Of a DNA stretch of 64,000 bases, positions 4,646 through 52,490 are shown piece by piece. Position numbers and translations under genes: made by a program. Source of the stretch: Octopus vulgaris (lineage: Eukaryota). Location of the stretch: positions 34,534,001-34,598,000 of the forward strand of contig OX597831.1 in NCBI GenBank assembly GCA_951406725.2. The letters are read 5' to 3'. The notes beneath the pieces were generated by a model. The model was not told where the DNA came from. It ran no database searches and saw only the letters and a list, made by a program, of their open reading frames with translations. Each line of letters opens with the position of its first letter. The first letter of the stretch is position 1.

Positions 4646-5263
4646 ATATTTCGGAATGGTCATATTGCAAGTTTAGCCAATAAAAACACACGCACTATAT
4701 ATTTGGTGTTATTTTGCTTCAGTGATATTTATTTTTTACTTTAATCTTAATCTTATTTCGGCCAGAGTTCTTTCGTCACACTCCTGTGACCGCATCAGTG
4801 GTCCTTTGTTTTCTTCTTTCTTATTTGTTTGTGTCTCTCCTTACTAACCGTCAGCCATTTTGATTATATATATATATCACATAATGTATAATGGTCATTA
4901 CATATTTTTCCTTCGGCTTACACCTGTTTCCAGTAGTAATTATAAGTTTGTTACTGAGTGGTTTCTCAATTGGCCTATTTATCAGTTGAGAAAGTTGAAT
5001 CACCTAAAATATTAATGCTACTTTCGTCAAAGCCATTTATGTCTTGTCTCTTTAGAGGATAGACGACATCCATAGCGGTTACAGTCTTCCTCTGTAGCGC
5101 AACCACGGATTTATAAGATAGAATGATGAACTGTAACCTCGGATCCTGCCATAAGAATACTCGAAGTTCTTTACTAATCTAAACAATATTGTTAGCCTGA
5201 TGTACCAATAGACAGTGTATGAAGTATTTTGCCCGGATTAATAATTCTTCACCAATAATTCTG

Positions 5264-6060: not shown

Positions 6061-7077
6061 TGGGTACGCTCCATAGTAAAATTCAGGATGAAAAAGAAAG
6101 ACTTCTGGCGAGTTTAGTAATTTGCGTAAGATAGCATTGCGTAAATGATACCCAAAAATAAAAATAATGATAATAATAATAATACTAATAAAAGGATTGG
6201 GTGGTCATCACCAGAAAGTTTTTAATCAAAAGTTTGCTGAATCGACGCTGTCCCGGGGCTAAACAACAACAACACTAATAATAACAAAAACAACAACTGC
6301 AGCAACGTTAACAACTGCAACGCTTTTATGTCCAGGTCGCTACCTTTTCTTCCCCTTCCATCAACATTTTATATTGAATATTATATTAATACATACTCGA
6401 TCCCTGCTTCCCTTTACATGAATATTAATCCACCCCAAAGCGAATCAATAGCGGTATATATTTCAGCAATATTATTAGATATGAGAGCGACTTCTATTGT
6501 ATGGATGATAAATGTCGCTAAGAAAAATCAATTTCCAAAGTCAATATATAACATTTCTCAGAACGTCTTACCTTAACCATCGCAAATATGCTTACTTAAA
6601 CTTCGTCTTCTTTTCCTTTTTCTTCTGTTTTTCTTTGTGTTTCTTTTTCTTTCTTTCTTCCTCTTTCCACATCAGAAAGATTCATAGAGCTTGTGCTTAT
6701 TTCCGGTTTCTGTAGTATTCAACAGATGAAGGCCAATACTCCACCGCAGCCGTTACCATCGTCACAGCCACCACTGCTACCGCAATCTCAGCCGCGCATA
6801 TATAATTGATGTTCGATGACATGCAGTAAATCTAAACGAGTGTGTGTGTAACAGAACTGAGCGCGGTGGCAGGCTAACAAAATACTTAGTGAAGCAAGTG
6901 CTAACAAACTTAATGTGGTGAACACAGTAACTTTAATTAACCGATATTATCAGCATCACCACGAAAGACGCGTGGCCGAGTGGTTAGGATGTTTGGCTCA
7001 TGTTCTGTAAACCATAAGTTCGATTCTCGATCCGACAACAAAGTACTTCATTTTTATGTTTCTCCAGTCCAAGCAGC

Positions 7078-9942: not shown

Positions 9943-10149
9943 GTGAAATAGAAAGATGAATAATCTTGTAGTAGATTAATCAAAAGTTTAACCGATACCT
10001 TAGTAGCAAAAATCACAGCAGTAAAACAGCACGGCTGGAGGTACAACCATATGGTGTTGCAACCGTGCGTTGGTGCGGATAATTGAAATTAGAACATTAT
10101 TGGTGAATTGAAGAAATGGAGCTGAACGCAGATTGAACAGAAATCGTTT

Positions 10150-10243
10150 TATTTCATTCTACACGTGTTTCGAAAGGCACAAATTACCAAAATCCGATGG
10201 AATAATGGGACCATATTGTGTCTTTCTCTTCAGGAAGAAAATA
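10150..10243 (-). ncRNA. Type I hammerhead ribozyme motif (left arm)
   Basis: Mirror of 10390-10482: CUGAAGA, stem II gaaagacacaa/uugugccuuuc, GAAAC-ACGU-GUA, stem I. Confidence 0.7.
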
Positions 10244-10389
10244 AAATCCGTTGGAAAAACAAAAACAGAACAGAGGCGGAGCAAAAACAAATCGAACTAT
10301 GCTCCTAAGAGCCCATGGGCTCTTAGGAGCATAGTTCGATTTGTTTTTGCTCCGCTTCTGTTCTGTTTTTGTTTTTCCAACGGATTTCC

Positions 10390-10482
10390 TATTTTCTTCC
10401 TGAAGAGAAAGACACAATATGGTCCCATTATTCCATCGGATTTTGGTAATTTGTGCCTTCGAAACACGTGTAGAATGAAATA
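10390..10482 (+). ncRNA. Type I hammerhead ribozyme motif (right arm)
   Basis: Stem I tattttcttc/gaatgaaata, core CTGAAGA 10400-10406, stem II gaaagacacaa..ttgtgccttc, GAAAC 10461-10465, palindromic ACGT loop, GUA triplet 10470-10472. Confidence 0.7.
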
Positions 10483-10537
10483 AAACGATTTCTGTTCAAT
10501 CTGCGTTCAGCTCCATTTCTTCAATTCACCAATAATG

Positions 10538-10582
<45 letters not shown>

Positions 10583-11007
10583 TAATCAATATAGGGTGGC
10601 AAAAAATTTCGTAGAATTTATTTGCCACCAGCGGCCTAGTGGGAAAAAATTAAATAGTCATAGACCATTTATAAGTTCAACATCACAATCAAGGAATGGC
10701 CATAATAGGCCATTCACCCACTAGAAATAACACCCAAAGCTTCAACCGCAAAATAACATTAATTCCGCAAACCAGGAGAAAATTAAAAAAACATTTTACC
10801 CTGTAATTTCTTATACGATGCACCGTTTCATCTATTGTTTAATGGTAAACTAACCTGATTAAATTAAATCAAGCCAATCTTCCATAGGCCGATAGATTCG
10901 TCAGTAAGAAACAGCCAGATCCGAGCAGATATTATCACGAGGCACCTCTATCCCTGCCTCGGCAATATCTGACCTAAAATTTTCAAATCATCGCACTCGC
11001 ATATATA

Positions 11008-11262
11008 TATTTTAAAAATATAAGTTTATGAAAGAATGGAGTTGAACGACTTGTTAACAAATTTCCTTTATTTTCGACATATGTTTCGAAGGCTGCATAT
11101 TCCTAATTCCGAAGGAATAAGGAGTACATTATGCAGATTTATGTACTCCTTATTCCTTCGGAATTAGGAATATGCAGCCTTCGAAACATATTTCGAAAAT
11201 AAAGGAAATTTGTTAACAAGTCGTTCAACTCCATTCTTTCATAAACTTATATTTTTAAAATA
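11008..11262. repeat. 122-bp-arm palindrome with 11-nt loop in a (TA)n-flanked element (~10580-11416)
   Basis: Arms 11008-11129 and 11141-11262 with one mismatch. They carry a half hammerhead (ccttcGAAAC-ATAT-GTC) and share atggag.tgaacg with the 10093 palindrome. Confidence 0.95.
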
Positions 11263-11430
11263 AACATACAAATTTCCGCACGAAAGCACGTAGTCTATGC
11301 CCTAGGGACGTAACTTCAACCGTGCTAGCCAGATAACGGAAGAGATGGTGTTGTGGATTTCCACTTCGGCATCTGAAACTCAGAGTTTTATCTTGACTAT
11401 CGAATAATGTAACATATTATTTGTATAGAT

Positions 11431-16400: not shown

Positions 16401-18317
16401 TTGTTGCTGCTGGAGTTGGGGCTGTTGCTGCTGGTGCTGGTATTGCCGTCGCTGGGGGTGATGTTGGTACCCGTCATATTCGCCTCCCTGCGCGTGTTGC
16501 CTTTTGGTGTAGTCGTTGTTGCTGATGATGCTGTGATTGCTGTTGTTGCTGCTTTATTACTCCGCTATAAAATATATATATATATATATTCAAATAAGTC
16601 ACATACACTCATACACATATACTTCTCAGTCTTCGGCCTAAAGTACGTAACGAACGCAGAAACACACACACATTCACAGACACATACACATTCATATAGA
16701 AAATGTGACGTCGTTGTCGTCGTAGTGGTATAAAAAGTCGTTTACGATAGTTGACTTATAGGAACATTATAATGTTAAATGTTTGTAATGCAAATATGTA
16801 AATGAGAATAAAGTTTATTTGATAGCTGAAAAATTACTAAATCTTTTGATACCCCATACATCAAAATCGACAACGAAGTTTTCGAATGCATAAGGAACAT
16901 ACGCGCGCGCACATACACACAAACCACACACACACACACTCACAAATGCACACACACACACACGCACACAAACTCTGCTTTACATATTGGGATTATGAAT
17001 ACAATCTGATTTAAACATATACCATTGTGGAAACTTTTAGACGATCATAATTCCCTCAAATTACACCAATCAGATCTTCCTCAAATGGCACCCTAATATC
17101 TTAAATATAGCAAACTAAACTAAGAATAGTTTCTCGTTGTATAGAAAAATATATGTAGCGGTCACTACTGGAGGGCCTTTTGTGTTAGATCTGACCTGAA
17201 GGCTAGACACTCACAACTGTTTAAACTATCGGACTGTAAGATAAATCCGTTAGTTCTTTTTTTTGTTTCTTCAATTTCTTTAAATTCTTGACTTAACACG
17301 AAAAATATTTTCCTTGTAGTATTTTAACGTTTTTTTTTTTTTTTGTAACCCTAGTCTTCCTCAGCAAATTCTCCTTATCGTTTTTGACGTTTGAATAAGT
17401 TTTACCTGTTTTCAGACGTATTACGATAGAGTGCCAAGTAGAAAAAAGCGAACTAATTTATCTGACAGACCAATACATCATTTGTCCTCATCTTTGAGTC
17501 TCATAGTTGTTCAGTGTTACGTGTAGAATCTGAAATATCATTTCAACTTTCCGTTAAATTATGAATACTTTCCTTAGAGATTTCCTTTCATTTATATTCG
17601 TACAATGCCTGCAGAAATGATTGTAAATTTGTATTTGTTTCAGTTCAGAAGTTCTTGTTTGTTTGGAAACAAACATGTAATAAATAAAAGGAAAAAGAAA
17701 GCCGCGTGAAGGGATGTCGTATATTTGACAGCTGAACAAATGAATAATTTTTATTCAGTTATCAAATGGGAAAACATCCAATGTTTTGAACAAAACAAAA
17801 CAAAACAACAACATTATGAACATTGACATAAACCATACATATATACATATATAGGCGTAAACACTGTATATACTTGATAGTATTTGGAAGCTTTACTGAG
17901 AGCAAAACACAAACCGAAAACCCAACACATACAGCACACGTAAAATTCATCATCAATTCTACCTGGAATGAAACGCTGTAAAAGTCTTAATCTGGTGCTG
18001 ATGATTTTATCAGTTATAACAATATTCCTACGATCCTTGGTGACTCACTACAAAGCACGCAAACAACATGCCTTTATAATTATTTCATTCTAATGATAAT
18101 TTCAAGGAATTCTTGAAACTTTCACTATATACATGTATTCTTTTATTATTTTATTTGTTTCAGTCATTTGACAAATCCACTGCAGGACTTATACCTTGTA
18201 ATCCTAGTACTTATTCCATCGGTCTCTTTCGCCGAACCGCTAGGTTACAGGGACGTAGATACACACCAACATTGATTGTCAAGCGATGCTGGGGGCGGGG
18301 ACAAACACAGACATACA

Positions 18318-18351
<34 letters not shown>

Positions 18352-18352
<1 letters not shown>

Positions 18353-18761
18353 TCTCTTTTACTCTTTTACTTGTTTCAGTCATTTGACTGCGGCCATGCT
18401 GGAGCACCGCTTTTAATCGAGCAACTCGAACCCGGGACTTATTATTTGTAAGCCCAGTACTTATTCTATCGGTCTCTTTTGCCGAACCGCTAAGTGACGG
18501 GGACATAAACACACCAGCATCGGTTGTCAAGCAATGCTAGGGGGACAAACACAGACACACAAACATACACGCACACATATATATATATACATATATACGA
18601 CGGGCTTCTTTCAGTTTCCGTCTACCAAATCCACTCACAAGGCTTTTGTCGGCGCGAGGCTACAGTAGAAGACACTTACTCAAGGTGCCACACAGTGGGA
18701 CTGAACCCAGAACCATGTGATTGGTAAGCAAACTACTTAACACACAGCCACTCCTGCGCCT
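18352..18761 (-). mobile_element. SINE family C, full length, inserted into an older family C copy (18140-18345)
   Basis: Complete head-to-tail match to the family consensus. Confidence 0.85.
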
Positions 18762-18982
18762 ATATGTATAGTATGTTATTTTTAATGGTGGATCTCGAAT
18801 TAGTTAAAACTATAAGTAACAGCGTATAGGAAATTTGGCTTGAAAAATATCGAAGGCTGTTAGTGAGACACGAACTCGTGTCATCGATGAACATGACAGA
18901 CGTACTAACTATTAGACAAAAACAATACTTCGAAAATTCTTTATCCATTTTGCAAGCTTTGTCCTTACCAAGCTTTGTCCTT

Positions 18983-19205
18983 CAAATGACTGAAACAAGT
19001 AAAAGAGTAAAAGAGAGTATATATATATATATATATATGTTTGTATGTCTGTGTTTGTCTCCGCCCCCAGCATCGATTGACAATCAATGTTGGTGTGTAT
19101 CTAAGTCCCTGTAACCTAGCGGTTCGGCGAAAGAGACCGATAGAATAAGTACTAGGATTACAAGGTATAAGTCCTGGAGTGGATTTGTCAAATGACTGAA
19201 ACAAA
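18983..19205 (+). repeat. Inverted duplicate of 18155-18387
   Basis: Shares private variants (gacaaatccact, caacattgattgtcaa) and the SINE-SINE junction. Confidence 0.8.
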
Positions 19206-26196: not shown

Positions 26197-26988
26197 ACTC
26201 TTTTACTCTTTTACTTGTTTCAGTCATCCGACTGCGGCCATGCTGGAGCACCGCCTTTAGTCGAGCAAATCAACCCCGGGACTTATTCTTACAGACACAC
26301 AAACACACACACATACAAATACATATATATATATATATACATATATACGACAGGCTTCTTTCAGTTTCCGTCTACCAAATCCACTCACAAGGCATTGGTC
26401 GGCCCGGGGCTATAGCAGAAAACACTTGCCCAAGATGCCACGCAGTGGGACTGAACCCGGAACCATGTGGTTGGTTAGCAAGCTACTTACCACACAGCCA
26501 CTCCTGCGCCTATGTACCTTTTTATATATTATGTGTGTGTGTTTGTATATTTATGCATGTATGGCGCAGGAGTGGCTGTGTAGTAAGTAGCTTGCTAACC
26601 AACCACATGGTTCCGGGTTCAGTCCCACTGCGTGGCATCTTGAGCAAGTGTCTTCTGCTATAGCCTCGGGCCGACCAAAGCCTTGTGAGTGGATTTGGTA
26701 GACGGAAACTGAAAGAAGCTTGTCGTATATATGTATATGTATAGATGTATGTGTGTGTATATGTTTGTGTGTCAGTGTTTGTCCATCTAGCATTGCTTGA
26801 CAACCGATGCTGGTGTGTTTACGTCCCCGTCACTTAGCGGTTCGGCAAAAGAAACCGATAAGTGACGTATATAATAAGTACTGGGCTTACAAAGAATAAG
26901 TCCCGGAGTCGATTTGCTCGACTAAAGGCGGTGCTCCAGCATGGCCGCAGTCAAAATGACTGAAACAAGTAAAAGAGTAAAAGAGAGT
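26197..26988. mobile_element. Head-to-head pair of family C SINEs (26197-26511 -, 26563-26988 +)
   Basis: Two consensus matches in opposite orientation, ~50 bp apart. Confidence 0.85.
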
Positions 26989-29110: not shown

Positions 29111-30389
29111 TATAATTATAATAATTATAATGATGATGATAATGATGATGATGATGATGATGATGATGGCTTCGGAAACAAATTTAGGATTCTTTCGATC
29201 AGACATATTCAAACGTAGCTCCGTGGAAGAAAAAGAAATAAAGAAACAAACAAGCAAACAAATGAACGGAAGAAAGAATTGTTCCTAATTTTATCGAACC
29301 TTGAATGGATACAAAAAGCAAAGTTGATTGCAGTGATATTTGAACTCACAACGTTAAGATCCGAAAGGAATACTGCAAAGTATTTCCCGATGCTCTACGA
29401 ATCCTACCAACCCACCGCCCTTTGTAGAAACAAAACCAATAACGTTGAGAGTTAATCGATAGCATCAACCTCAGTGCATGACTGGCACTTCAGTTTATCG
29501 ACCCCAGAGAGATGAAAGCCAAAGGTGGCCTTTGCGAGATTTGAACTCAGCTCTTTCAAGAGTTCTATGATTGACGGAAGTTACTTTTTTTATCGGCCCC
29601 AGAAGGATGAAAAGCGGCGATGATATCAGTAGTATTTGAACTCAATGCGTAAAAAGCCGGAAAAAAGTATCGCATAGTAATTATATTCGACGCTATAACG
29701 AGTCTACCAATCAGGCGAAATTAATTGTTTCTGGTTAAAGCACAACGCTAACAATTTTGAAGGGAAGGTTTTGTTGCCAACCTCTAGAGAGGTGGCCCTA
29801 GCAGGATTTGGAATCGGAATAAAATTTTAAACATATTTGATCCCATTCTCTAACGACTCTGCAAATTCGCTAACTGAATGAGCTATAAAATTGTTCAATA
29901 GAAGATTCAAAAACGATTAATGTTGAATCTATTGACTTGTATAAGAAAAGCAGTATGGACAGCTAACTGCAACAACAACGACATCAACACCAACGTCAAA
30001 ATTCTGTCATTTATAACTTTTGCTTATTCGAATAAAGGAAACATTTTGCATTCAAAGACTTTTGGCCAATTTCACTAATTCGATTATCACTCACTAATAG
30101 TTCCTTCAAGCAATTTACCGCTTCAGTAGTTTGGAGCTCTTGAGTCTCTGTAGTTGAGATGCCAAAAATTACTTTAATGGAAAATATATCAGTAACTTCT
30201 AAAGTAGAGCCGTACGACATTTTAAGGTGAATCTCTACTCGAACCAGCTCCAGGAAAGGAAGTAGAAAGTGGCCGGGTATGTTAGAAATTTTACCAAGAA
30301 GGGGCCTCGTGGAATGTGGCATACTTCAGGGGTGGGGCTAAAAAGAGGAACCTTCATGTTTTCTTGGAAAAGGTGTTAAAATAAACTTT

Positions 30390-43280: not shown

Positions 43281-43678
43281 CTATTTGGGATATAAATGAG
43301 TTATGAGGCATCTTTTGATGTACACATTAGCACAGCACCAACGATGTGTAAAAGGAAAGCGGGTTGGAACCTGAGATCATTTAGTACCAGGGGGCAAAAT
43401 ACCATTCTACATTTATGGCGAAAACTTTACCGTTTGTTGCCTGGACTACTGCTCATAATGATGGTCGCCAAACAGTATTAAATTAACAACAAAACCTGAA
43501 GCAATCCAAAGATGCTTCGCACGCTTTACGGAAAGAGCTAAGCTGCTGCGAGTCGTTGAAAGCATTGAAACTCTACTCCCTGAAGAGAAGATATGCGTTG
43601 ATCTTTACATGGCAGACCCTTAAAGGGCTCGCACCAAACTTCGGTAATGAAAACTATACCCATCCCCAAATTGGTATA

Positions 43679-44969
43679 CGAGGGACGTTCAATAAGTAAT
43701 GCCTCTGACCCACTTGCAGTTGTTTGATCTAGCTGAAATGTTGCATGTGTAATCATTTATATATCTATAGAGTAAGTGGCAAATTACAGCTCTAAATTAA
43801 TTGTGGTTTCTGATTTACAGGTGTTTGAACCGAGTCAAGTGTGAAATGGAGCCTGTTGAGTGTCGAGCAGTGATCCGGTTTTTGTATTTGAAAGGACGCA
43901 CACCACGGGAGACTTTTGATGAAATGAAAGTAACTTATGGTGATGATGCCCCATCATATGACCTTGTAAAACGCTGGCATCGTGAATTCAAACATGGTCG
44001 GAACTCTGTGGAAACAGCTCCCAGATCTGGTCGCCCCCTTCTGCCATTGATGAGGCATCTGTCCGTCAAGTTGAGGCTGCCATTTTGGAAGATCAACGCA
44101 TAACTATTCGCCAAATAGCCCATGAGGTCAAGATTAGTACCGGGTCTGTGGAAACTATCATTCATGACCATTTGCATATGCAAAAGGTGTCTACCAGATG
44201 GATTCCCAGGCTGCTCACGCCTTTCCAGAAGCAAGAACGCGTCGAGTGCTCGAGGGTGAATTTGGAGATGTGCCAAGAAGATGGGTCAAAATCTTTCAAA
44301 AGACTGATTACACAGGATGAAACCTGGGTCCATCACGATGATTCAGAGACCAAAGCCCAGTCAATGCAGTGGAAGCACCGTGACTCACCCCCTCCAAGTA
44401 AGGCAAGGATGCAGCCCTCCGCTGGCAAGGTCATGCTCACAGTCTTCTGGGACCAGGACGGAGTAGTGATGACAGATTTCCTGGCAAAGGGTACCACAAT
44501 TGCAGGAGCCTATTATGCTTCACTTTTGAGGAAATTAAGAGAAGTTATCAAAATCAAGAGGCGGGGCAAGATCAGCAAAGGCATCCTCCTCCTGCAGGAC
44601 AACGCTCCGGTCCACAACTCGCTTGTCGCCAGATCAGAAGCACAGGCGTATGGCTATGAACTCCTCCCCTATCCCCCTACTTTCCTGACCTTGCACCCTC
44701 TGATTTTCACCTCTTCCCAGTGATGAAGTTGTTTTTGAAAGGAAAGCGTTTCCCAGATGATGCAGCCTTGATTTCTGAAGTCGCGTTCCGGTTGGAGGAC
44801 CAAGCTGGGGTCTTCTACAAAAACGGTCTCCAGAGCTGCATCAAACAATGGGAGAAATGCGTAACTCTGGGTGGTTCCTATGTAGAAAGAGACTAATAAC
44901 TGTGCCAAGTTTCGTTGCTCTACTGCTATGGGAAGTGGGTCAGGGGCATTACTTATTGAACGCCCCTCG
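43679..44969 (+). mobile_element. Full-length mariner (DD34D) transposon, 1291 bp
   Basis: TIRs cgagggacgttcaataagtaatgcctctgacccact / agtgggtcaggggcattacttattgaacgcccctcg, with TA TSD at 43677-78 and 44970-71. Confidence 0.97.
43846..44896 (+). pseudogene. Mariner transposase with two frameshifts
   Basis: MEPVECRAVIRFL..PRSGRP / WIPRLL..TQDETW..LQDNAPVH / YFPDLAPSDFHLF..YVERD*. Frameshifts fall in C-runs near 44035 and 44675. Confidence 0.93.
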
Positions 44970-46022
44970 TATGCTCATAGGTTATGTGCATATACGCATA
45001 AATACACTTACACAAATATTTATACGGTTCTATAAATACTTATTATTTTGTTTTCTTATTTTGATATCCTTTCCTATTAACCTCTTATCCCTTATAATTC
45101 CTTACTTTCCTTGTTCTTAAATAGATATTTTTCAGTTACGTAGGTCTATGCGAGATGGTTATCCTATATCCTTATAAACGTATAAATATCTGTGTATGTG
45201 CATATGTGCATATAAGAACATATATAAATGTGTGTGTGTATCTGTATGCATCTTTACTTTTTTCTGATTCATGGCTTAAAATTAATAGATAACATGTATA
45301 TCTTTCCAGTTATTCCATAAGTAAATGCCTCGAGCAGTCTTTATACAAACCACCTTATAAGTAATTAATTAAGTACAGGAATGAATATTAAACTGATTCT
45401 ATGTAATCTTTCCTTTTTAATGTTTATAAGTGATATATACACACATTTTGCCTATTTTGGTTATGATATCATTTTTGAAAAATCTTTAATTTTATTTTTA
45501 TACAACATAACAATATTGTTTATAAACAATCACCCATAGTGCCCCAAAATAAAATTTCCTCTGTATTAACATATTAGCTCTCTTAGCGTCTTTCCCCTTT
45601 AACTGGTAATTAACATCGTGATTTAAAGTCTTCCCCTACCCAACCTCTTTTTATAGACGGTTACTTATATCCAATTGACTACTCCTAATGTCTTCTTTCC
45701 TCCCTGGGGAAAAGGGATACATACGATAATATTTATGACCATACCTAGCCATGGGCTGTCAACTAACTCTTCTCCTTTATTCAAAGTAGAATCAGTCTTC
45801 TAGTCTTAGATTTAGTAATTGATAAAGAGATAAATGAATTAGAAATGAATTACAATCCCTTACAATACTATTACCCCAATAGGCTTCATATGATTTTCGG
45901 AAGTGTAGTCTATTCTTAGCTACAATAGCGACATCATAAATTTCTTCCATCTTGTTCTGTTAAAATATTTGAGAAAAATTATATTAATGTATCCTACTTG
46001 TTAAAATTCTATTTATTTATTT

Positions 46023-46110
46023 GTGCAGCTGAAGATGGCACTACATTTAAATCGATGTAATGATTGCATTGTTCAATTAAATGGAACTGCTTGAAACGGT
46101 CGTACTGCAT
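46023..46110 (+). ncRNA. Type I hammerhead ribozyme motif
   Basis: Stem I gtgcag/ctgcat (6 bp), CTGAAGA 46029-46035, stem II ggca/tgct with a large loop, GAAAC 46093-46097, GGTC loop, GUA 46102-46104. Confidence 0.75.
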
Positions 46111-46139
46111 CACTACTCGATATCCTGTTGCTTATTTTG

Positions 46140-46843
46140 ATTTTAGAAATATGATATTTCTAAATCTTTCAGAGAGATTTATACAGTAGCAGTACGATAA
46201 AGTGATGGTATGCTGCCAACTTAATGTGGCCGTCCTATGAATAGGAAGAATGCTACTGCTATTTAGCCCAAGGAAACACCGTTTCCAGTTGGCCATGGCA
46301 CATTTTCTGTGTCCTTATGTTTTCAAAGGGGAGATAAGCACCTCCACCCAGCATAGCCAGCACTCGGGGTCTAGTTTCAGAGTCATTGCTCATCGTCAGT
46401 CTGGAGTAGCATGGCTTGCTAGCTGTCGATGCTTATTCGCCTCTGAAACCATAGATTTCAAGTGAAATACATTCACTGATTTCACATTAAGTTGGCAACT
46501 TTATAGTGATGCTACTGTACTCTCTGAGAGATTTAGAAATGTAATATTTCTATTTTAGAAATCAGTGAATGTATTTCACTTGAAATGTATGTTTTCAGAG
46601 GCGAATAAGCATCGACAGCTAGCAAGCCATGCTACTCCAGACTGACGATGAGCAATGACTCTGAAACTAGACCCCGAGTGCTGGCTTTGCTGGGTGGAGG
46701 TGCTTATCTCCCCTTTGAAAACATAAGGACACAGAAAATGTTTCATGGCCAACTGGAAACGGTGATTCCTAAGGCAAATAGCAGTAGCATTCTTCCCTTT
46801 CATGGGATTGCCACATTAAGTTGGCAATATGCCATCACTTTAT
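46140..46843. repeat. Inverted repeat (arms 46197-46483 and 46558-46843) whose spacer is an inverted copy of 46140-46229
   Basis: Arms are clearly alignable with scattered substitutions and contain CTGACGA-tgag/ctct-GAAAC (46642-46667). Confidence 0.9.
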
Positions 46844-46957
46844 TTTGATTTTATTCACCTTACTTCGAGCTGTGCGGATAATACCGGACTGACTTGGTGC
46901 TTCAATTTAAGTACCTAATTCAACTGAATCTAAATTATTTTAAATAGGTGTATGTGC

Positions 46958-46993
<36 letters not shown>

Positions 46994-46997
46994 ATAG

Positions 46998-47028
<31 letters not shown>

Positions 47029-48084: not shown

Positions 48085-49160
48085 CATGATCACGACCAGA
48101 CTGGGGGGAAAATGTATCTTCATTGGCTTCAAACTCTTCCAGCAAATCTAAGCAAACTTTCACGCCCGTCTCATTCAAGCTAACTATCTTGCACACACTT
48201 TCCAATTCCGAAATATACTGCCATCTACAGGAATGCATTATTACCCTGATGTTGTGTAGCCAATTCACTGACTGTTACTCATCTATCCGCGCGAATCATT
48301 TGTTCATTCGACATTCGTGTAAATGGTCGCAGTTGATGGTCTCCCACGGCATGGCTTCCTTCAGTATTAGTTACCCTTTCTTTAAAATTCTTCATCCATC
48401 GACACATAATTACTCTTTTACTCTTTTATTTGTTTCAGTCATTTGACTGCAGCCATGCTGGAGCTCCGCCTTTAGTCGAACAGATGGAACTTATTCTTTG
48501 TAAGCCTAGTACTTATTCTATCGGTCTCTATTGCTGAACTGCTAAGTTACGGGGACGTAGTCACACCAACATCGGTTGTCAAGCGACGGTGGAGGAGGAA
48601 CAAACATACATACAAGCATATATATATATATATATATATATGACAAGCTTATTTCAGTTTCTGTCTACCACCCTCAAGGCTTCAGTCGGCCCGAGGCTAT
48701 AGCAGAAGACAGTCGTCCAAGGTGCCACGCAGTGGGACTGAACCTAGAATCATGTAGTTGGTAAGAAAGCTTCTTACCACATAGCCACTCCTTGTCAATA
48801 ATTCTTTCTAATTTTTAGTACAAAGTCAGCAATTTTAAGGGGATGAAGGAAGTCGACTACATCGATACCAGTGCTCAAATAATACTTTGTCTACCAGTAC
48901 CAGTTGCGTACTGGGGTCGATCTAATCGACTTGCCCCCTCCCCAAAAATTTCGAGCCTTGTGCCTAGAGTAGAAAATAATGCTTTATCAACCTGTAGGAG
49001 TGGCTGTGTGGTAAGTAGCTTGCTTACCGACCACATGGTTCCGGGTTCAGTCCCACTGCGTGGCACCTTGATCAAGTGTCTTCTACTATAGCCTCGCGTC
49101 GACCTTCAATGAAAGCTTTGTGAATGGATTTGGTAGACGGAAACTGAAAGAAGCCTGTCG

Positions 49161-52267: not shown

Positions 52268-52490
52268 ATTGTATAAAGGATCGTGGGTAAGGCCAGAACA
52301 ATGCGAAGTAAATGCAAGGTAAATCACAAGAAAACAAATACGTGAATTAATGTAGACTTATCTTGTATTCAATAACCCCGAAATACTGAATATAAGGTAA
52401 GTCTGCATTAATTTACATGTTTGTTTTCTGGTGATTTATCTTACATTTATTCAGCATTGTTTTGGCCTTACCCACGATCTTTTATACAAT
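52268..52490. repeat. Diverged inverted repeat, ~104-bp arms, 15-nt loop
   Basis: Arms 52268-52371 and 52387-52490. Mismatches are mostly transitions. Confidence 0.9.

Follow-up and report, generated by a model that had tools for sequence, protein, structure and literature searches.

A long-armed type I hammerhead motif in a probably Penelope-like repeat of Octopus vulgaris

The window analysed here, a stretch of 64,000 nucleotides of Octopus vulgaris DNA (assembly GCA_951406725.2, contig OX597831.1, positions 34,534,001 to 34,598,000 of the forward strand), carries at 46023-46110 on its plus strand what is, judging from its sequence, a true type I hammerhead motif that lies within a member of a family of repeats. 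We consider it probable that this motif is the solitary relic of the 3' end of a Penelope-like retroelement (PLE) that has decayed and whose layout is that of the Hydra clade, PLE membership being something we can only infer because no reverse transcriptase (RT) or endonuclease remnant was detected. The 46023 copy alone adds little; its value lies in a design, with a long helix II, that recurs among unrelated repeats in one 64-kb window.

Parts and statistics of the motif

The motif was delimited by sequence reading, a descriptor, shuffles and folding. Stem I pairs 46023-28 (GUGCAG) with 46105-10 (CUGCAU) through five Watson-Crick pairs and one terminal G.U. Between its strands lie the 5' core half CUGAAGA (46029-35), an extended helix II of 57 nt (46036-46092), the 3' core GAA (46093-95; GAAA, 46093-96), a self-complementary helix III of 8 nt, ACGGUCGU (46096-103), and a GUA triplet (46102-04), with the cut predicted after A46104. 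CUGANGA, GAAA and UH are thus found in the type I order, stem I closes, and helix II joins the core halves; the 6-bp stem I, the intact cores and the triplet that the first-pass annotation had reported are all borne out.

A strict descriptor found two sites in the window. In 1500 local dinucleotide shuffles the mean was 0.0013 sites per window, and no shuffle reached two. That AT-rich DNA should match the hammerhead consensus by chance is a reading to which we give almost no weight. It could appeal to Rfam, whose models give no score (no family at gathering score across the window, nor any hammerhead family in 44900-47000 at E<=10), and to the region with its flanks, which folds no more stably than shuffles (z -0.2). 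Against it stand the shuffle expectation, the compensated helix II of a second copy and five more long-armed motifs of like design in the window (both described below), and we regard it as largely refuted already. At least 120 metagenome loci match both core halves, and among those listed none has stem I and stem II both of at least 4 bp and none has BLAST similarity to the 46023 locus.

The description of the motif as clean and canonical does not hold. Helix II begins with a U facing a U, helix III can pair only with that of a second molecule, and Rfam is silent; the motif departs from the canonical type I model of a 6-bp stem I, a 4-bp stem II and loop-loop contact, with its short helix II and G10.1-C11.1. 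When sequencing runs were searched for words of the locus, 14 of the 24 rows listed (eight studies, four organisms) shared 0.26-0.68 of them, a measure in which orthologous sites and paralogous copies are indistinguishable; six rows with small shares were left out as evidence, and no RNA dataset sharing locus words was among the runs listed.

The repeat and its later interruption

A phmmer search with one minus-strand frame recovered P0002 and P0003, which are spurious antisense open reading frames of other copies of the repeat, and one unrelated repetitive protein. By tblastn, P0003 aligns with 45311-45493 and P0002 with 45668-46150, the latter resuming directly at 46838-46906. These alignments place the minimum extent of the dispersed repeat body at 45311-46145 (plus strand); its 3' remainder, 46854-46946 (plus strand), runs into a (TG)n/(TATG)n/(GATA)n microsatellite, the end point being read from the sequence. 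Codon-fixed sites of the P0002 copy are identical to the window at 173 of 212 positions over 45685-46145 and at 39 of 46 over 46820-46906, and the 46023 repeat is ~18% diverged from P0002, the sole relative seen. No further relative of P0002 was found among 14 candidates. P0004 was rejected as an unrelated repetitive match. The window contains no second copy of the family, leaving the 46023 copy solitary.

The hammerhead had been placed at the 3' end of its element, abutting a large inverted repeat. The inverted repeat was confirmed (46197-46843, 88% identity between the arms); the 3' end was misplaced, as the repeat resumes on the far side of the inverted arms and runs to ~46946. Because P0002 crosses the site without a break and a 14-bp target duplication flanks it (an exact direct repeat, left 46132-46145, right 46840-46853), we conclude that the inverted repeat came in later, as a 708-bp insertion (46146-46853). 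Its arms and tail mark it as a second fold-back unit of PLE type; it consists of an inverted copy and then a partial tandem, and only one end bears a tail, of ~50 nt. The inserted unit holds a degenerate hammerhead with a short helix II at 46642-46672 (plus strand), mirrored at 46369-46399 on the minus strand, in which GAC replaces GUH; since both arms of 46146-46853 carry GAC, this change predates the insertion or arose with it. Rfam matches of the inverted repeat to miRNA families were rejected, since they score far under the gathering threshold and arise from the fold-back.

Insertion of PLEs into or next to older copies of PLEs has been reported (PMC6765202), and PLE hallmarks include inverted 5'-truncated copies, partial tandems, a one-sided tail and microsatellite ends (PMC8557442). 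The surroundings of the motif show such features, microsatellite ends among them. Partial tandem, inversion and one-sided tail are seen in 46146-46853 and in the palindromes at 10-11 kb, and were not seen in the 46023 repeat itself. With the insertion discounted, the core lies ~200 nt from the microsatellite, so that the 46023 hammerhead has the PLE trait of a near-3'-end position in sense orientation, a sense that is defined by the ribozyme itself, no open reading frame being known.

Coding remnants and surroundings

Pfam searches for an RT or GIY-YIG remnant gave no relevant match in the six frames of 44975-46198, as would also be the case for a truncated, frameshifted relic, and no relevant RT or GIY-YIG domain in 113 open frames across the window. 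One plus-strand frame was searched for homologs and none were found. RT-like and GIY-YIG-like words seen by eye in frames of 44975-46020 had no Pfam, PDB or homolog support and were rejected; a DIE2/ALG10 Pfam match at 6241-6573 falls below the cutoff and looks spurious.

The window is repeat-rich, with ~20% simple repeat. The left edge of the AT-rich stretch is formed by a broken, unrelated mariner transposon (43679-44969, plus strand) with Pfam matches to HTH_48 and Transposase_1, both terminal inverted repeats and a TA duplication, its transposase being split over frames. A plus-strand frame at ~43480-43676, without a Pfam match, resembles what we take to be the 3' end of a CR1/L2-type LINE ORF2, apparently cut by the mariner. 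Further long inverted arrangements, SINE-like or other, occur at 26349-26724, 48642-49159, 18156-19203 and 52268-52490, and scans of these found no hammerhead cores.

Other copies share at least 0.7 kb of the sequence upstream of the core, in which no coding signal is seen, and the plus strand is T-rich in the manner of a UTR. This would suit a non-autonomous, retrozyme-like repeat that never coded for protein and borrows PLE enzymes, its hammerhead processing the repeat's own short RNAs, and animal retrozymes are reported to derive from PLE pseudo-LTRs (preprint 10.64898/2026.07.22.740005). The animal non-LTR retrozymes described in PMC7229834, however, are tandems of ~300-bp monomers with canonical loop 1-loop 2 contacts, whereas the 46023 copy is longer, is single in the window rather than part of a tandem array, and has its loop 2 ~19 bp from the core. 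We therefore consider a retrozyme-like origin unlikely and prefer the relic of a PLE 3' end.

Helix II in the window and in a second copy

The 57 nt between the cores fold as a U opposite a U and then 4+7+8 bp (19 bp) around a 3-nt loop, with a predicted energy of -12.8 kcal/mol (z -2.67; 6 of 200 shuffles were equally stable). What had been read as a ~47-nt loop of stem II is a continued hairpin, making up a 19-bp extended helix II.

A second copy of the motif was obtained by back-translation of P0002, in which approximately two of every three sites are fixed by the codon, and the structure of the window copy was applied to it. All five definite changes at paired helix II sites in this copy are compatible with pairing: one C-G has become U-A, with both sides codon-fixed, another has become U.G, and two are changes on the 3' side whose partner is an unresolved purine. 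As a control, the 3' partner was slid by one to three positions, which left 5-11 pairs able to form and broke 4-9. The 3' core of the second copy is identical at 7/7 codon-fixed sites. Two positions differ in the 3' strand of stem I, and 11 nt covering the 5' strand of stem I and most of CUGAAGA seem to be missing; because of this loss the second copy is itself broken, and the covariation evidence concerns helix II only. Of the earlier expectation, stem conservation or covariation among copies, half is thus seen. The outer helix II shows it, as 15 of 15 testable pairs can still form and one change is two-sided; stem I, whose 5' strand appears to be missing from the sole relative seen, does not. 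From this one second copy we infer selection, under which the long helix II would have been retained as a structure while the copies diverged.

Folding and predicted cleavage

All folding values given here are nearest-neighbour predictions, with tertiary contacts left out. Helix III forms no hairpin within a monomer (0.0 kcal/mol), whereas 8/8 of its positions pair between two copies (-5.8 kcal/mol); the palindromic helix III suited to dimer pairing, a trait of PLE pseudo-LTR hammerheads, is thus present at 46096-103. By analogy with published PLE hammerheads, two hammerheads of a tandem transcript of the active ancestor would have paired via helix III, and each would then have cut after GUA, so that RNA of unit length was set free to be reverse-transcribed. 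The 46023 copy is without a family partner in the window, and a second transcript acting in trans would therefore be needed.

In a single RNA, the minimum-energy fold has the C-U-G of the core paired to helix III and is more stable than the hammerhead fold by ~4-5 kcal/mol. With 10, 30 and 60 nt of flank, the hammerhead-compatible fraction was 0.0016, 0.0002 and 0.0003 for the 46023 motif, 0.032, 0.013 and 0.004 for a motif at 10912-10806, and 0.015, 0.017 and 0.0002 for one at 10233. The modelled double hammerhead has -43.6 kcal/mol and the lowest two-strand fold -54.2. The first-pass annotation had ranked the 46023 motif as the best single candidate for an active ribozyme; it loses this rank to the 10.9- and 10.2-kb motifs, which mostly fold better, and is itself subject to a predicted misfold that buries the core. 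Efficient cutting of the 46023 motif as a single RNA strikes us as improbable, and for measurable cutting in a dimer construct the chances seem about even. Because it is solitary, ~18% diverged and interrupted by a PLE-type insertion, the 46023 copy is probably a relic, and weak or no cutting is predicted for it as a single RNA.

These predictions also bear on host co-option, in which the motif would serve, as an active ribozyme in monomeric form, to end or process a transcript. The conserved nucleotides of the core and the 6-bp stem I have all stayed intact despite the divergence of the repeat, and for an axolotl hammerhead with U.U at the base of helix II, cleavage of the monomer reached 22% in one hour (PMC7229834). 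The folding models, however, predict a helix III that is unstable in one molecule and a competing misfold, and no host exon was identified in the open frames of the window. Moreover, where a window holds several relics, survival should leave one core intact, and 46023 was chosen for its intactness. Co-option is accordingly very unlikely in our judgement, and the decayed PLE remains the explanation that we favour.

Other hammerheads in the window

A relaxed scan, controlled with 60 shuffles, gave eight sites against 0.2 in the shuffles; six of the eight passed the filter for a long stable helix II, against 0.1. Matches at 29474 and 56897 (minus), the former among the six, were dropped after folding, which left 46029, 10904, 10233, 5030, 11337 and 4798; the site at 10400 was added from a separate analysis. 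Five further long-armed hammerhead motifs, unrelated in sequence to that at 46 kb, are present in the window, and the density of long-armed motifs is about one per 10 kb.

The motif at 10806-10912 (minus strand, core 10904) has an intact core, an 8-bp stem I to which 3-4 bp may be added, a 68-nt helix II (z -5.0) and a self-complementary helix III of 12 nt. On the folding models it is the best-folding motif in the window and the better substrate for a cleavage assay. Close by, a head-to-head palindrome (10090-10542) holds two outward-facing long-armed hammerheads with G-C at the base of helix II, one on the plus strand (core 10400; helix II of 54 nt, z -0.6) and one on the minus strand (core 10233; 55 nt, z -1.7). 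A second palindrome, of a family related to this 10.3-kb one, lies at 11002-11268 and folds back inside helix II, so that the 5' half of the hammerhead is gone from both arms; compared with the 10.3-kb family, its helix III has changed on both sides and is still self-complementary. Further hammerheads face outward on both sides of 11002-11268. A hammerhead relic at 11329-11395 (plus strand, core 11337) has CGGAAGA, with one core change, and a 31-nt helix II (z -3.7). The fifth motif, at 4914-5035 (minus strand, core 5030), is degenerate, with UUGACGA and a 93-nt helix II region that folds weakly (z -0.4), and ~100 nt downstream of it a short degenerate hammerhead at 4798 (~4770-4805, minus strand) has CUGAUGC and a 6-bp helix II. 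Four of the five long-armed motifs sit 41-234 nt upstream of a dinucleotide run; at 10233 the run, at 220 nt, may be beyond the end of the element.

If the long-arm design holds genome-wide, a large class of ribozymes has been missed. More speculatively, and with the balance in our estimation tipped somewhat against it, the genome may hold a very large PLE-type hammerhead population of many families, with a helix II of 55-90 nt under selection, unseen by Rfam and descriptors; ribozyme counts would then be far too low, and the job of the arm would be non-catalytic, for example binding the RT-endonuclease. Deletion of the arm would be a direct test of the non-catalytic part of a PLE hammerhead, for which 10912-10806 is again the substrate of choice.

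Comparison with known hammerheads

Hammerheads of PLEs are already known, their role being still unclear (PMC8557442). They have a palindromic helix III, cleave weakly in vitro and only as dimers, and have been proposed to cut a tandem precursor RNA to unit length (PMC4209133). A Penelope expansion in Octopus vulgaris has been dated at a JC distance of 0.2 (PMC13282606, in whose main text the word 'hammerhead' does not occur); the divergence of the 46023 repeat, 0.18-0.2, would fit that expansion, with the proviso that a copy-to-copy distance is not the same measure as a copy-to-consensus one.

The closest likeness is to the Hydra clade, which inserts into (TA)n (PMC8557442) and is present in octopus, since Hydra-1_Obim of Octopus bimaculoides is listed there. 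Shared with the 46023 motif are the type I arrangement, the CUGANGA-U ... U-GAA base, a long self-complementary helix III, a stem I of 3-7 bp, a position ~50-430 nt from the consensus 3' end and microsatellite targets (PMC8557442). A U opposite a U at the base of helix II is found in 14 of the 26 Hydra-clade rows of File S2 (PMC8557442), which argues that the U.U at 46023 is a family trait and not damage. The two differ in helix III, for which all 26 rows give a segment of 9-10 nt written as stem-loop-stem, against 8 nt at 46023; in loop 2, which has 3-10 nt in these rows (PMC8557442) against 47 nt, folded into 15 further pairs, at 46023; and in that no open reading frame was found at 46023. 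The Hydra clade is marked by RWK, DKT and CxCX5C motifs and an endonuclease without CCHH, for which the 46023 repeat offers no readable frame. Compared by eye, the Hydra-1_oBim motif listed in PMC8557442 has no sequence match to that at 46023, and the three window motifs compared were absent from the PLE consensus file of that study, in which line breaks can hide matches. Membership of the Naiads was set aside, as the 3' ends of Naiad_Obim, Naiad_Ovul and Naiad_Omin could not be aligned by eye and Naiads are reported to be without hammerheads (PMC8557442). Two 15-16-nt words of 46023-46090 resemble, by eye, the 3' ends of Naiad_Ovul and Naiad_Obim with two mismatches each and in reversed order, a resemblance that is probably due to chance.

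The minimal PLE hammerheads of PMC4209133 likewise are of type I, with a palindromic helix III, predicted dimer action and a U-rich 5' flank, and they occur mostly as solitary truncated copies and as opposite-strand pairs 100-700 bp apart. The U-rich 5' flank of 46023 and its 'GAAAN Palind NU H' agree with the PLE consensus given in that study's supplement. The minimal hammerheads differ in their helix II of 6-8 bp with a conserved G10.1-C11.1 (PMC4209133), and the short helix II that is a trait of PLEs (3-8 bp, loop of 3-10 nt) is replaced at 46023 by 57 nt between the cores. With animal non-LTR retrozymes the motif shares the type I hammerhead within AT-rich repeats; dimer-dependent cleavage, which is predicted at 46023, and U.U at the base of helix II are documented in the axolotl (PMC7229834).

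The published descriptor allowed a stem II of 3-7 bp, a loop 2 of 3-10 nt and GAAANNUH only (PMC4209133), and in PMC8557442 the search by core alone was run with a spacer of 7-17 nt; since these limits are too small, both searches would miss the long-armed motifs. No title or abstract in the literature searched mentions hammerheads of PLEs or cephalopods whose helix II is long. An enlarged loop 2 is found in the spike-moss elements PLE-X1_sMoe and PLE-X1_sTam (35 and 29 nt), which are marked as deviating and are the only long loops in File S2 of PMC8557442; these elements, in contrast, are from a plant, endonuclease-less and rDNA-targeted, and their loops are shorter than the at least 47 nt seen here (PMC8557442). 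What seems new in the octopus window is a long, structurally kept helix II (54-93 nt) that is common to several unrelated repeats and lies outside both Rfam and the published descriptor.
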